Virus record (IMG/VR): IMGVR_UViG_2526164609_000012
From: a virus
Lineage: Duplodnaviria > Heunggongvirae > Uroviricota > Caudoviricetes
Length of the DNA stretch: 16,518 nucleotides
Reading direction: 5' to 3' (one strand)
Position 1 is the first letter of the stretch; the number at the start of each line of letters is the position of its first letter. Made by a program: the position numbers and the translations under genes. The notes under the pieces were generated by a model. It was not told the origin of the DNA and did no database searches. It saw only the letters and a program-made list of their open reading frames with translations. Shown in pieces: positions 2,183 to 7,343 of the stretch.

Positions 2183-2383
2183 TCATTTCTCGTTATTTGT
2201 CATGCTGGCCGGGCGCAGATGCGTTGCATCTGTTGCCAGCCTTCTCCTGCAGGCTTCAATAACCCACGCTGAAAAGTTACCGGACCCTTTATGCTCAAGG
2301 GCGATGTTGATCTGTTCAATCATGTGATTGGGGAAACGGATATTGCGGGTTGTGGTTCTGCGGGTACGGTTTTTCGATGACAT
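2183..2383 (-). CDS. small putative ribbon-helix-helix DNA-binding protein
   Basis: Minus-strand ORF trimmed to internal ATG at 2383, which has AAAGGAAAT upstream: MSSKNRTRRTTTRNIRFPNHMIEQINIALEHKGSGNFSAWVIEACRRRLATD... Basic N-terminus, a short beta-like segment (RNIRFP) and two helices fit an RHH pattern. Divergent from the HNH gene. I think it resembles small enterobacterial prophage proteins but cannot confirm the family. Confidence 0.5.
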   Translation of the reverse strand: MSSKNRTRRTTTRNIRFPNHMIEQINIALEHKGSGNFSAWVIEACRRRLATDATHLRPASMTNNEK

Positions 2384-2424
2384 ATTTATTTCCTTTACTG
2401 ATTGCCATATGACGGGGATTTTAC

Positions 2425-2790
2425 ATGGCTGAGCTTCGTACACTCCAGAGCAGAATCAAAACACTGAATACCCGACGGGTGAATATTCTGAAGGGTGAAC
2501 AGCGTCGTGTCAGTGGCAGTGCACGTGTTTCCCTCAAGCGTCATATCTGGCTCAGGGACGCCGGGCAGTGCCGTCTCTGTGGTCGTGTGGTTGACCTCTG
2601 TGACAGTGAACTCGATCACCGAATTGCACTTCAGTTCGGTGGTGGTAATGAGGAGACGAATCTCTGGACGCTCTGTACCGAATGCCATCGACAAAAGTCT
2701 GCTCGTGAAGCGGCGAGTGATATGCCGGACCCGACGCTGCCGGAGGTGTCCGGAGGTAGTGGCAGAGAGGACGACATCATCGGACTGTAA
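2425..2790 (+). CDS. HNH endonuclease, packaging-associated
   Basis: 121-aa ORF with Cys pairs and HNH motif (CRLCGRVVDLCDSELDHRIALQFGG...NLWTLCTECHRQKS); GGGGA RBS. Sits immediately upstream of a cos-like repeat region and the terminase small subunit, the usual place for terminase-associated HNH proteins in HK97-like phages. Confidence 0.85.
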   Translation: MAELRTLQSRIKTLNTRRVNILKGEQRRVSGSARVSLKRHIWLRDAGQCRLCGRVVDLCDSELDHRIALQFGGGNEETNLWTLCTECHRQKSAREAASDMPDPTLPEVSGGSGREDDIIGL

Positions 2791-2879
2791 CCCGACCCCG
2801 GGGGGTATCATCCGGCGTAAAAAACGATCGCTTTGGACACCGCGCCCCCTCTCACGCAGAGAAAAAATTCCCGTTTCAG

Positions 2880-3006
2880 GCCAGTTAACATGTTAACTGG
2901 CTGTCCGGGCATTTTTGCGGTTTTTATCTTTATTATTCAGTTTGTTGTGCGAAAAAAAATGTTAACTGGCTTTTTCAGAAAATGTTAACCAGGCAGCAGT
3001 TAACAT
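2880..3006. repeat. cluster of GTTAAC-centred motifs including a perfect 22-bp palindrome; candidate cos / terminase recognition region
   Basis: Perfect palindrome GCCAGTTAACATGTTAACTGGC at 2880-2901; ATGTTAACTGGC again at 2959-2970; ATGTTAAC at 2982-2989 and its inverse GTTAACAT at 2999-3006, separated by CAGGCAGCA. An A/T tract (2911-2958) lies between. All within the non-coding gap between HNH and the terminase small subunit. Confidence 0.45.
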
Positions 3007-3080
3007 TTGCGGCATGAGACGCCGGGAAAAATGGGCTGAACCATACCCGGCTGAGTGCGTTCTGGACCCGGGAGGAGGCT

Positions 3081-3641
3081 GTGCTGACAACGCAAAAACG
3101 AAAATTTGCGCTGGCGCTCATGTCCGGGAAAAACAAAACAGCGTCAGCCATTGCCGCCGGTTATTCGGCGAAGACCGCCAGGGTTAAAGGCTCGCAGCTG
3201 GCAAAAGATCCGGAGGTGCTCGCGTTTATAGCCCGTAAACAGTGCGAAACGGTGGAGGTGGATGAGGTTCCTGTTTACCGGCAGAAAAAATCAGAGCAGG
3301 AGGATAAACCCCGTCGCCGTGAGGCGGCTGCAATACCACAGCCGGACGAAAACAATCCGGAGATGCCACCGCCCGCGGTGATGTCTCATGGTATTGAATA
3401 TATGGAGGATGGTCTTCCCGATCCGGTGAAAGCTATGGGGCAGATCCTGGTGGAAAACCTCAGCATTGATCCGAAACTGGCACTGGATGCGGCCTGGCGA
3501 CTGGCGCAGTTCACACACCATAAAAAAGGCGATGCCGGTAAAAAATCGGCAAAAGGTGATGCCGCGAAAAAAGCGGCTAACCGTTTTGCGGTACCACCAC
3601 CACGACTGGTGGTGAATAACGATAATGAGGGCAACGGATGA
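3081..3641 (+). CDS. terminase small subunit
   Basis: 186-aa ORF, GTG start at 3081 preceded by GGAGGAGG. N-terminal HTH-like segment (KRKFALALMSGKNKTASAIAAGYSAKTARVKGSQLAKDPEVLAFI) typical of small terminase subunits; stop overlaps the large-subunit start (ATGA at 3638-3641). Confidence 0.8.
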   Translation: MLTTQKRKFALALMSGKNKTASAIAAGYSAKTARVKGSQLAKDPEVLAFIARKQCETVEVDEVPVYRQKKSEQEDKPRRREAAAIPQPDENNPEMPPPAVMSHGIEYMEDGLPDPVKAMGQILVENLSIDPKLALDAAWRLAQFTHHKKGDAGKKSAKGDAAKKAANRFAVPPPRLVVNNDNEGNG

Positions 3642-5299
3642 TACCTGTATGGAGCACGGCCTGCCCGGACTGGGCAGAGCGCCTGAAAAAGGGGCTGTCG
3701 ATTATTCCGGCTCCGATTTATCCGGACCAGGCCGCACATGCCCTGGCGATTTTTAAACAACTGCGGATTGTGGATGCACCGGGTAGCCCGACGTTCGGGG
3801 AGTCCTGTGCACAGTGGGTGTTTGACCTGGTGGCGGCTCTGTTTGGCTCCTACGATGCGCAGACCGGTGTCCGCCATATCAAGGAAGTGTTCATTCTGAT
3901 ACCCAAAAAAAACAGCAAGTCCACACTGGCCGCCGGGATCATGATGACGGCGCTGTTACTGAACTGGCGGCAGGCGGCGGGTTACACGATTCTGGCCCCG
4001 ACTGTGGAGGTGGCAGCCAACGCCTTCAATCCTGCCAGGGATATGGTACGACGGGACGATGATCTGGATGACCTCTGTCAGGTGCAGACACATATCCGGA
4101 CCATCACCCACCGGGTGACGGACACCACCCTGAAGGTGGTGGCAGCCGATCCGAATACGGTGTCCGGTATCAAGTCCGTGGGGACGCTGATTGATGAGTT
4201 GTGGCTGTTTGGCAAGCAGTACAAGGCGGAGGACATGTTACGTGAAGCCATCGGCGGGCTTGCCTCCCGCCCGGAAGGGTTTGTGGTGTATACGACCACC
4301 CAGTCGAATGAACCGCCCGCCGGGGTGTTCAGACAAAAACTGCAGTACGCCCGGGATGTGCGCGACGGCAAAATTAATGATCCGCACTTTCTGCCGGTGA
4401 TATTTGAACACCCTCCTGAAATGGTGGAAAGCGGGGCTCACCTGCTGATGGAAAACCTCGCCATGGTCATTCCGAATCTCGGCTATTCAGTGGATGAGGC
4501 CTTTCTGTACCGGGAGTACCGTAAAGCCCGGGAAGCCGGTGAAGAGACATTCCGGGGGTTCATGTCAAAACACGCCAATGTGGAAATTGGTCTTGCCCTG
4601 CGCTCTGACCGCTGGGCGGGGGCTGATTTCTGGGAAGAGCAGGGCCGTTGTATCAACCTGGACGATATCCTGCGTCGTGTTGATGTGGTGACGGTGGGGA
4701 TTGACGGCGGAGGGCTGGATGATCTGCTGGGGATGTATGTGATTGGGCGTGACCGGGAGACCCGCGAATGGCTGGGCTGGGGCCATGCCTGGGCGCATGA
4801 AACCGCGGTGGTCCGACGGAAGAGCGAGGCGTCCCGGTTTCATGATCTTGTTGCCTGTGGAGATATGACCATTGTCCGGCGTGTCGGGGATGACACGGCG
4901 GAAGTGGCGGAATATGTGCGTCGCATTCATGAGGCTGAGTTACTGGACCATATCGGTATTGACCCGTCAGGGGTGGGGCAGATTCTGGATTCACTGGCGG
5001 AAGCCGGGATCCCCGACGGAATTGTGGTGGGGATAAGCCAGGGCTGGAAACTGGGCGGGGCCATTAAAACCACCGAGCGCAAACTGGCTGAAGGGGTGCT
5101 GGTGCATGGTGACCAGCCCCTGATGGCCTGGTGTGTCGGCAATGCCCGGGTGGAGCCTAAAGGTAACGCCATTCTTATCACCAAACAGGCCAGTAGACGG
5201 GGAAAAATTGACCCGCTGATGGCGCTGTTCAATGCGGTCTCCCTGATGTCCCTTAACCCGGAACCGAAAAAGAAAGAATATGCGGTTTTTTTCATATAA
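3638..5299 (+). CDS. terminase large subunit
   Basis: 553-aa ORF. ATPase P-loop-like segment (FILIPKKNSKSTLAAGIMMTALLL) and a C-terminal nuclease-like region (VTVGIDGGGLDDLLGMYVIGRD); size and position after the small subunit fit. Confidence 0.9.
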   Translation: MIPVWSTACPDWAERLKKGLSIIPAPIYPDQAAHALAIFKQLRIVDAPGSPTFGESCAQWVFDLVAALFGSYDAQTGVRHIKEVFILIPKKNSKSTLAAGIMMTALLLNWRQAAGYTILAPTVEVAANAFNPARDMVRRDDDLDDLCQVQTHIRTITHRVTDTTLKVVAADPNTVSGIKSVGTLIDELWLFGKQYKAEDMLREAIGGLASRPEGFVVYTTTQSNEPPAGVFRQKLQYARDVRDGKINDPHFLPVIFEHPPEMVESGAHLLMENLAMVIPNLGYSVDEAFLYREYRKAREAGEETFRGFMSKHANVEIGLALRSDRWAGADFWEEQGRCINLDDILRRVDVVTVGIDGGGLDDLLGMYVIGRDRETREWLGWGHAWAHETAVVRRKSEASRFHDLVACGDMTIVRRVGDDTAEVAEYVRRIHEAELLDHIGIDPSGVGQILDSLAEAGIPDGIVVGISQGWKLGGAIKTTERKLAEGVLVHGDQPLMAWCVGNARVEPKGNAILITKQASRRGKIDPLMALFNAVSLMSLNPEPKKKEYAVFFI

Positions 5300-5324
5300 C
5301 CCTGTTCACACTGTAACCATCACG

Positions 5325-5350
5325 AACCGCTCCGGCGGTTTTTTTATTTT
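5325..5350 (+). terminator. terminator/attenuator-like hairpin after the terminase large subunit
   Basis: Stem AACCGC (5325-5330), loop TCCG, stem GCGGTT (5335-5340), then TTTTTATTTT; followed at once by the AGGAGG RBS of the protease. A near-identical hairpin recurs at 13659-13680. Confidence 0.4.
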
Positions 5351-5362
5351 CAGGAGGCTGAT

Positions 5363-5937
5363 GTGACTCTTAAACGGGCCTGTTCCCTGCTGACGGTGAA
5401 ATCCTTCAGTGAGGATGAACGGGTGATCACCGGGATTGCGTCAACGCCTTCTCCGGATCGGGATGGTGACATCCTGGAGCCGGAGGGCGCGGAGTTTGGC
5501 AGTGCGATCCCGTTTCTCTGGCAGCATGACCATTCCCGCCCGGTGGGGCAGTGTACGGTGCGCCGGGTCAGCGAAGGGCTGGAAATCACGGCAACACTGG
5601 TGAAGCCCGTACCGGATATGCCGTCGCAACTGGCTGCCCGGCTGGATGAGGTCTGGGCGGCCATTAAGACCGGGCTGGTCAGGGGCTGTCCGTGGGCTTC
5701 CGTCCCCATGAATACACCTTTCTGGACGGAGGCGGACTGCATTTTCTGCGCTGGGAACTGATGGAGGTGTCTGCCGTCACCGTGCCCGCGAATGCGGAAT
5801 GCACCATCCGGACCATTAAATCTTACGACAGCCCGTTTTCTGCCGCGTCCGGCAACCGGAAACCGGTGGTGAAAATCGCATCTTCTGCCGGCGCTGCGGC
5901 ACAGTCAACAACCGTTTTTCATAAGGAAAAGACCATA
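5363..5937 (+). pseudogene. HK97-family prohead protease, frameshifted and in frame with the capsid gene
   Basis: GTG start at 5363 with AGGAGG RBS. N-terminal part (ITGIASTPSPDRDGDILEPEGAEFGSAIPFLWQHDHSRPVGQ) matches prohead protease, but this frame stops at 5759-5761. The conserved GLSVGF...EVSAVTVPANAECTI part is in another frame, open from 5668. One extra G in the GGGG run at 5682-5685 would join the two. The second frame has no stop before the capsid gene. Confidence 0.7.
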
Positions 5938-7299
5938 ATGAATATTGGCGAACAGATTAAAAGTTTTGAAAACAAGCGTGTAGCGCTGGCAGCCTCCCTT
6001 GAGGAGGTCATGACCAAAGCCGCAGAGGAAGGGCGCACGCTGGATGTGGAGGAGGAAGAGCATTACGACAACACCGCAGCGGAAATCCGTCAGGTGGATG
6101 CGCACCTGAAGCGCCTGCGTGAACTGGAAGCCGGTAAGGCCGCCACGGCGCAGCCGGTGAAACAGGCCGGTAACGGGAATGTGGCCGCGGTGGCTTCTGC
6201 GCCGGTGATCCGTGTGGAGCAGAAACTGGATAAGGGGATTGGCTTCGCCCGCTTTGCCAAATCGCTGGCTGCGGCTAAAGGCGTCCGATCTGAAGCCCTG
6301 GAAGTGGCCCGTCGTCAGTATCCGGATGACAGTCGTCTGCATCATGTCCTGAAATCGGCAGTGGGCGCGGGGACCACCACGGATCCGCAGTGGGCAGGCA
6401 GCCTGTCTGAATATCAGGAATACGCACAGGACTTTATTGATTACCTGCGTCCGCAGACCATTATCGGGCGATTTGGTCAGGGCGGGATCCCTGCACTTCG
6501 TCAGGTGCCGTTCAATATCCGTGTGCACGCCCAGGTGTCCGGCGGTGCTGCCGGCTGGGTGGGTGAGGGTAAGGCAAAACCCCTGACGAAGTTTGATTTT
6601 GAATCCATCACCTTCAGTCATGCGAAGGTGTCGGCCATTGCGGTACTGACGGAAGAGCTGATCCGTTTTTCCAGTCCGGCAGCTGATGCGCTGGTCCGTA
6701 ATGCGCTGGCAGAAGCGGTGGTGGCGCGTCTGGACACAGACTTTGTGGACCCGAAAAAAGCCGCAGTGGCAGATGTCTCCCCGGCGTCCATCACCCATGA
6801 TGTGAAGGGCAAGGCATCAACCGGTAACCCGGATGCGGATGCAGAGGCGGCGTTTGGACAGTTTGTGGCAGCAAACCTGCAGCCCACCGGTGCGGTCTGG
6901 CTGATGTCCAGCACCAATGCCCTGGCGCTGTCCATGCGTAAAAATACGCTGGGTCAGAAGGAATACCCGGACATGACCCTGCTGGGGGGGACCTTCCAGG
7001 GGCTGCCGGTGATTGTCTCCCAGTACGTGGGTGACCAGCTGGTGCTGGTGAATGCCCCGGATATTTATCTGGCGGATGACGGCGGCGTGGCAGTGGATAT
7101 GTCCCGCGAGGCATCACTGGAAATGCAGTCTGAGCCGACCGGCGACAGTACCACGCCGTCGCCGGTGGAGCTGGTTTCCATGTTCCAGACAGGCAGTGTG
7201 GCCATCCGTGCGGAGCGCTGGATCAACTGGCGTCGTCGCCGTACCGCGGCGGTGGCGGTGATCACCGGTGTGAACTACGGCAGTGCGTCCGGCGGCTGA
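5938..7299 (+). CDS. major capsid protein, HK97 fold, with N-terminal coiled-coil delta/scaffold-like domain
   Basis: ATG at 5938 with AAGGA about 10 nt upstream. N-terminus (MNIGEQIKSFENKRVALAASLEEVMTKAAEEGRTLDVEEEEHYDNTAAEIRQVDAHLKRLRELEAGK) is coiled-coil-like as in HK97 delta domains; the rest has capsid-like size and composition. Same frame as the upstream protease C-terminus with no intervening stop. Confidence 0.85.
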   Translation: MNIGEQIKSFENKRVALAASLEEVMTKAAEEGRTLDVEEEEHYDNTAAEIRQVDAHLKRLRELEAGKAATAQPVKQAGNGNVAAVASAPVIRVEQKLDKGIGFARFAKSLAAAKGVRSEALEVARRQYPDDSRLHHVLKSAVGAGTTTDPQWAGSLSEYQEYAQDFIDYLRPQTIIGRFGQGGIPALRQVPFNIRVHAQVSGGAAGWVGEGKAKPLTKFDFESITFSHAKVSAIAVLTEELIRFSSPAADALVRNALAEAVVARLDTDFVDPKKAAVADVSPASITHDVKGKASTGNPDADAEAAFGQFVAANLQPTGAVWLMSSTNALALSMRKNTLGQKEYPDMTLLGGTFQGLPVIVSQYVGDQLVLVNAPDIYLADDGGVAVDMSREASLEMQSEPTGDSTTPSPVELVSMFQTGSVAIRAERWINWRRRRTAAVAVITGVNYGSASGG

Positions 7300-7343
7300 G
7301 TCTGATAAGGAGGACGGGAGGCGAGCGCCTCCCGTAACAGGTT

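Follow-up and report, generated by a model that had tools for sequence, protein, structure and literature searches.

A one-base deletion splits a protease-capsid fusion gene in a lambdoid prophage with several further lesions

The stretch of DNA analyzed here, IMG/VR virus record IMGVR_UViG_2526164609_000012 (all 16,518 nucleotides (nt) of which are referred to as the window), raises the question of why the gene for the prohead protease and the major capsid protein of a tailed phage is distributed over two reading frames. The window comprises the late region of the phage, and its letters are shown for positions 5363–7299, where this gene is located. An initial annotation had offered two explanations for the split, namely an insertion or deletion that inactivates the protease in a short run of G residues and a sequence error at this run, and it had regarded the native gene as probably a protease-capsid fusion. 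Our results support the inactivating deletion, as the shortened run and other lesions are common to four further assemblies. With a probability of roughly 0.9, the gene is a pseudogene, i.e., a fusion gene that was broken by a deletion and has been inherited in this state within a multiply disabled lambdoid prophage.

The following features define the broken gene and its surroundings.

5324–5346, plus strand: terminator-like hairpin with a T run, situated behind the large terminase gene and ahead of the protease-capsid gene; the single such site in 5200–7600.
5352–5365, plus strand: ribosome-binding site AGGAGG (5352–5357) and GTG start codon (5363–5365); phage 2851 has the same context.
5363–5761, plus strand: truncated open reading frame (ORF) of 132 amino acids (aa) with a GTG start and the stop codon TGA at 5759–5761; native protease residues 1–108, then 24 out-of-frame residues.
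5668–7299, plus strand: downstream open frame for protease residues 108 to ~160, a variable linker, a coiled-coil (delta-like) scaffold from Met193 and an HK97-fold capsid domain; stop codon at 7297–7299.
5682–5685, plus strand: run of four G (G4) in codon 108, site of the 1-nt deletion; five G (G5) in intact relatives.
5759–5763, plus strand: TGATG overlap, in which the stop codon of the 132-aa ORF overlaps the in-frame ATG at 5761 of the downstream frame; gene callers begin a 512-aa ORF there.

The downstream frame is opened by the TAA codon at 5665–5667 and, read as an ORF, contains no stop until 7299. The two frames (5363–5761 and 5668–7299), the TGA (5759–5761) and the GGGG run (5682–5685) lie exactly where the initial annotation had placed them, and its prediction that the gain of one nucleotide would restore a frame of about 645 aa was also borne out: one additional G in the run gives exactly 1938 nt and 645 aa. 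In a base-by-base alignment with four relatives (three close and one more distant), a comparison which the initial annotation had proposed, protease and capsid were fused and the run was G5 in all four cases. The window showed a single gap at the G run, and this was its sole private indel within the fusion gene. The start codon is GTG in the window and ATG at the same place in distant homologues. In a genome that shares the split gene (CP026807.1, see below), a 512-aa gene is called at 10399–11937, which corresponds to window positions 5761–7299. Two antisense ORFs on the minus strand (5350–5742 and 5905–6798) were considered and rejected as chance ORFs; both are located wholly within the conserved sense gene, and the 297-aa antisense ORF had no PHROG match.

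The 2.1-kb region containing the gene matched 1,257 complete Escherichia coli records (1,250 over at least 80% of its length) and 93 phage records (92 over at least 80%), the latter mainly from Stx-converting phages such as 2851, BP-4795, YYZ-2008, 1717, and JLK-2012. In relatives with the G5 run, the intact gene is one coding sequence (CDS) of 1938 nt and 645 aa, which carries names such as ‘phage major capsid protein’, ‘major head protein/prohead protease’, or ‘capsid and scaffold’. Single E. coli genomes contain copies of the head module in up to seven places. A protein search retrieved 2,545 relatives at E ≤ 1e-10. Full-length relatives of ~644–648 aa and 73–77% identity were found in Salmonella, Enterobacter, Klebsiella, Serratia, Kosakonia, and Pantoea, all of them with S78 and Phage_capsid domains, and the same fused arrangement is shared by 110 full-length homologues with identities as low as 73%. 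Three distant homologues viewed in their genomic context share the gene order HNH, small terminase, 553-aa large terminase, fusion gene, and portal. As judged from these comparisons, the native gene is a protease-capsid fusion, because the single-CDS architecture of S78 and capsid domains and the gene order are also kept outside E. coli. This agrees with the expectation of the initial annotation. The G5 run, in contrast, is confined to the E. coli/Shigella clade, and the same residues are encoded by CGCGGC in Salmonella and by AAAGGC or AAAGGT in Serratia-type homologues. Since it is absent from more distant homologues, the run does not represent a conserved signal but a site prone to mutation. 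As a separate observation, one E. coli genome (NZ_CP074781.1) has an in-frame deletion of 159 nt near the capsid C-terminus, equivalent to window positions 7089–7247, and encodes 593 aa compared to 645 aa; such 593-aa copies are carried by some E. coli prophages and are annotated as intact.

Comparison with the Stx-phage head protein shows what has happened to the copy in the window. Over positions 5300–7400, the DNA of phage 2851 (YP_009909243.1), BP-4795, YYZ-2008, and E. coli (WP_000173020.1) is 97.5–99.7% identical to the window. The order of HNH, small terminase, large terminase, fusion gene, small ORF, and portal is the same, and the head protein consists of the same 645 aa as the window sequence with one G added, with three to six differences. 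Unlike the Stx-phage gene, the copy in the window has G4 instead of G5, is split into the 132-aa fragment and an out-of-frame remainder, and carries three private changes. It shares near-identity and the gene neighbourhood with the cluster of PHROG 617 and WP_000173020.1, whereas the single ORF of ~645 aa that characterizes this cluster is missing. The gene in the window is a pseudogene copy of this Stx/lambdoid fusion family.

More distant systems share parts of this arrangement. In its function, the fusion corresponds to gp4 and gp5 of HK97 linked into a single polypeptide. HK97 gp5 has an N-terminal delta scaffold domain, and the capsid part of the fusion, which matches TIGR01554, likewise begins with a coiled coil. 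However, gp4 and gp5 of HK97 are encoded by separate, adjacent genes with the portal gene before them, whereas here a single ORF is followed by the portal gene, and BLASTP of the capsid part against gp5 was not significant, the two capsid domains being too diverged for a pairwise comparison of this kind. Protease, scaffold, and capsid are also combined in one chain in the family NF045541, named ‘prohead protease/major capsid protein fusion protein’, and in PHROG 4523, named ‘major head and protease protein’. Since the restored protein scored only 53.7 bits against the cutoff of 525 for NCBIfam NF045541 (scaf_prot_MCP2), the fusion belongs to another lineage and is not a member of that family. 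A literature search retrieved no usable description of this protease-capsid fusion, of phage BP-4795, of the relevant accessions, or of the HK97 catalytic residues.

The consequences of the frameshift for the encoded proteins were assessed by domain searches. In the restored 645-aa protein, Peptidase_S78 (PF04586) extends across the break (residues 48–152; 34.7–38 bits, cutoff 21), and Phage_capsid (PF05065) covers residues 386–635 (53.2 bits). The restored protein also matches TIGR01554 ‘major_cap_HK97’ with 76 bits (cutoff 27.5) and TIGR01543 ‘proheadase_HK97’ with 46.5 bits, which is below the equivalog cutoff of 59. PHROG 617 aligns end to end (residues 1–639) only after restoration; in the unrestored sequence, it covers residues 1–108 of the 132-aa ORF, and its positions 143–626 fall on the downstream frame. 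The window’s own frame (5668–7296) retains PF05065 with 53.8 bits, above the curated cutoff of 24.2, and the 132-aa ORF as it stands had no Pfam match at E ≤ 0.001. Among solved structures, a sequence search retrieved only one weak match, to a capsid protein (9d9w, E 0.0019), and no relative of the protease.

The protease domain is 29% identical to HK97 gp4 over ~140 residues (E 5e-9). Ser110 pairs with gp4 Ser114 in the common motif G-x-S-V-G-F, and His55, in the motif LWQHD, is offset by one column from gp4 His65; we take His65 and Ser114 to be the catalytic residues of the HK97 prohead protease. H55, D56, and S110 are invariant across the 110 full-length homologues. In the window, the codon for His55 (5525–5527) is part of the 5363 frame and that for Ser110 (5689–5691) part of the 5668 frame. 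The missing G is located two codons ahead of Ser110, and the downstream frame has its first start codon, the GTG at 5692, just after the serine codon. The initial annotation had described the catalytic half of the protease as fused to the capsid protein. The downstream frame does join the rest of the protease to the capsid, but the catalytic pair itself is divided, with His55 upstream and Ser110 downstream of the break. Both residues occur in one polypeptide in the restored sequence and in all 110 homologues, and they do not in the window. Because the frameshift separates His and Ser, neither product is predicted to be an active protease. The three window-private substitutions in the fusion gene are all non-synonymous (R157S, A207V, A529T), and the sites of R157S and A207V agree in 107 and 97 of the 110 homologues, respectively. 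These amino-acid changes, albeit small in number, fit a relaxed constraint.

The capsid part of the gene has a feature that bears on how the native protein is made.

5923–5940, plus strand: internal AAGGA (5923–5927) and ATG (5938–5940, Met193), putative nested capsid start.

Met193 is invariant in 110 of 110 homologues. It follows a variable, indel-rich linker (residues 172–192), and the coiled-coil segment begins with it, which is where the start of a stand-alone HK97-type capsid gene would be expected. An AAGGA(A) motif is found 6–11 nt upstream of this ATG in the window, in phage 2851, and in Salmonella, Serratia-type, and metagenome homologues, and it is kept in the DNA although the encoded residues vary (KEK, KGN, KGK) at ~75% protein identity. 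This suggests that the native gene may also produce the capsid protein alone from the Met193 start. We tentatively propose, with somewhat less than even confidence, that the native 645-aa gene is a nested pair in which the full-length product would contribute the protease, and the far more abundant capsid protein would be initiated at Met193 (ATG 5938). If so, the protease-to-capsid ratio would be set through translation initiation, and unprocessed capsid protein would still be made from the frameshifted Shigella copy. In phage lambda, an in-frame internal start within the protease gene C yields the scaffold Nu3. The fusion gene likewise contains a candidate internal start, Met193 with AAGGA, but the nested product in lambda is the scaffold and not, as would be the case here, the capsid protein.

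Downstream of the fusion gene, the prophage carries additional lesions, which are listed here together with the large terminase gene.

3638–5299, plus strand: ORF of the large terminase, intact, 553 aa.
7511–8875, plus strand: portal gene with the in-frame nonsense codon TAG at 8009–8011 (GAG, Glu167, in relatives), which splits it into ORFs of 166 aa and 286 aa.
11801–12567, plus strand: IS1 (DDE_Tnp_IS1) inside the major tail subunit gene; the alignment with NZ_CP074781.1 breaks at 11800/12567.
13732–16518, minus strand: IS66-family element (TnpC 14094–15695, TnpB 15702–16193), which cuts the tape-measure gene.

Homology to intact prophages ceases at 13731, from where the tape-measure gene continues in NZ_CP074781.1. 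Given these further lesions, the prophage is a decaying, non-inducible remnant.

Whether the G4 allele is itself real was examined by its occurrence in other assemblies. An 80-nt query around the run was found in 1,083 E. coli records (2,331 places) and 51 phage records; G4 was present in three of the former and in none of the latter. The three complete E. coli genomes with G4 contain several neighbour genes flagged ‘frameshifted’, which is a signature of homopolymer errors. An exact 35-mer of the G4 allele had no match in the GTDB species-representative genomes. The exact 132-aa product was found in 245 blocks of an assembly collection and in 183 contigs (NCBI, ENA, Logan, UniRef), and the names attached to it include ‘peptidase U35, phage prohead HK97 [Shigella dysenteriae CDC 74-1112]’ and a UniRef Shigella dysenteriae entry. 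Four assemblies have the same architecture as the window: CP026807.1 (L009), PSSQ01000001.1 (L013), CP026834.1 (L014), and CP026823.1 (L017), with 0, 19, 9, and 0 substitutions, respectively. Each of the four shares with the window the G4 run, the nonsense codon of the portal gene (TAG), IS1, and the IS66-family element. Over 15.76 kb, the window differs from CP026807.1 by two 1-nt indels only, a T5-versus-T6 run around position 11442, which is apparently intergenic, and an extra A at position 20; this near-identity implies that the window originates from a near-identical strain or is another assembly of the same strain.

On these grounds, it is improbable that the source strain truly has G5 and an intact fusion gene and that G4 is a homopolymer miscall. 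The idea draws on the error-prone nature of the run, on the three E. coli genomes mentioned above, and on six other carriers of the 132-aa product, whose longest aligned blocks with the window (7.3–8.6 kb) contain 5–43 gaps. Five of them (L010–L012, L015, L016) are ~97% identical to the window and have 13–43 gaps in a 7.3-kb block, and their G4 is probably one of many errors; the sixth (L018) is less clear, with five gap openings in 8.6 kb and several head genes that are also split. The window itself, however, shows just one private 1-nt indel in ~7 kb (2300–9467) relative to its closest E. coli relative, apart from a 162-nt repeat-unit difference, and the same G4 occurs in CP026807.1, PSSQ01000001.1, and CP026834.1, which had no private homopolymer indels. 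Moreover, G4 is also present in the older S. dysenteriae CDC 74-1112 entry, the UniRef S. dysenteriae entry, and many short-contig assemblies, and the co-inherited portal lesion is a base substitution and not a homopolymer artefact. Taken together, the comparison of assemblies indicates that G4 in the window is a genuine deletion that has become fixed in one lineage, which is most probably that of Shigella dysenteriae. Several points weigh against this interpretation. The support for G4 comes at the level of assemblies, and the four supporting assemblies may include related strains of one sequencing project, as three of them have CP0268xx accessions. CP026823.1 has homopolymer errors of its own, and G4 at this run is also seen, apparently as an artefact, in E. 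coli assemblies that contain many errors. In addition, the organism was assigned from the database names of an identical protein and not from the window’s own record, and the loss of protease activity was deduced from the sequence.

If the deletion is real, the two frames could in principle still be joined by recoding, i.e., by −1 ribosomal frameshifting or by transcriptional slippage on the G run, which would yield short and full-length products. A −1 slip of the Gly-tRNA from GGC (5684–5686) to GGG (5683–5685) would recreate the native VRGLSVGF exactly. Nevertheless, we consider recoding very improbable, even more so than a sequence error. The site reads GUC AGG GGC and contains no X XXY YYZ heptamer, in almost all relatives the protein is read from a single frame, the G run is missing from more distant homologues, and the prophage has other inactivating lesions; furthermore, a run of four G is too short for efficient transcriptional slippage. 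With no slippery heptamer and a two-frame layout that is not conserved in relatives, a programmed −1 frameshift site was rejected. About as improbable as the miscall is a tolerated split, in which the capsid protein would still be made, from ATG 5938 or by re-initiation at the TGATG (5759–5763), and would be processed by the protease of a sister prophage, so that the locus would retain part of its function. The downstream frame is indeed intact to 7299, the internal ATG with AAGGA is conserved, and genomes often have several copies of the head module, in up to seven places. However, the three lineage-specific substitutions are all amino-acid changes, two of them at highly conserved positions, and a prophage with a nonsense codon in the portal gene and interruptions in the genes for the tail tube and the tape measure could not form particles of its own.

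The scenario that we favor, a pseudogene in a disabled prophage, may thus be outlined as follows. The window is the late region (lysis, packaging, head, tail) of a prophage in a Shigella-type genome, and this prophage is lambdoid and of the Stx-phage 2851 / BP-4795 type. One G has been lost from the G5 in codon 108, most likely by a slipped-strand deletion in the short G run, which would have created a null allele of the protease. Translation from the GTG at 5363 would now yield the 132-aa fragment with His55 and without Ser110. In the −1 frame, which holds the remainder, no start codon precedes the serine, and an active protease would therefore not be expected; at most, the internal starts at ATG 5761 or ATG 5938 could give the capsid part, without maturation. 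The deletion was inherited together with the portal nonsense codon, the IS1 in the tail tube gene, and the IS66-family element in the tape-measure gene, and the prophage may have been disabled already when the G was lost or may have become so subsequently.

The genes of the window are arranged in the order lysozyme, Rz, an ORF with a TonB_C domain, HNH, small and large terminase, and the broken fusion gene, followed by a 73-aa ORF, the portal gene, a 353-aa repeat protein, head-tail connector, head closure, and gp10-like genes, and then by tail completion, major tail subunit, and tail chaperone genes and the start of the tape-measure gene. The ORF between the lysis and the HNH/terminase genes (1710–2051, 113 aa) contains a TonB C-terminal domain (PF03544, E 1e-14) and is named ‘TonB family protein’ in relatives. 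In relatives, an IS3-family element is also present upstream of the window equivalent.

The end of the portal gene is polymorphic and comprises a G run (8856–8860), an A6 run (8867–8872), and an ATGA overlap (8872–8875). With G5 in this G run, the portal (~454 aa) and the 353-aa repeat protein are encoded by two ORFs with the ATGA overlap; this form is found in the window and its relatives, BP-4795, Stx2 phage 1717, and several Stx2a phages. With G6, as in phage 2851 and YYZ-2008, a single 860-aa ‘portal’ is encoded. The G5 form is tagged ‘frameshifted’ by PGAP. Two overlapping ORFs are, however, also present in the relatives from Salmonella and Serratia, which makes the two-ORF form look ancestral and the PGAP tag probably incorrect. 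The portal and the 353-aa ORF would be joined by a −1 slip on the A6 run. The latter ORF contains tandem repeats of ~162 nt, which encode 54-aa units (‘PVPRDGRDYDPEVL...’; window ~9097–9467, junction near 9416), and the window is one repeat unit short of all three aligned relatives that cover this ORF, an in-frame difference.

The lesion in the fusion gene is ordinary prophage decay, and the fused form of the gene is already well known; the lesion opens no new biological question. Its products have left traces in databases. The 132-aa family phrog_13361 (‘unknown function’) matches the frameshifted product end to end, including the out-of-frame tail, phrog_30146, phrog_6538, and phrog_26508 match other fragments of the fusion gene, and the 132-aa fragment is also behind a UniRef ‘Caudovirus prohead protease’. 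Broken copies have thus seeded spurious database families, which illustrates the way in which fragments of pseudogenes spread. For annotation, the locus should be described as one frameshifted pseudogene of the fusion and not as two genes, ‘prohead protease’ and ‘major capsid protein’, and the lesion is a further marker of a dead remnant prophage of Shigella.

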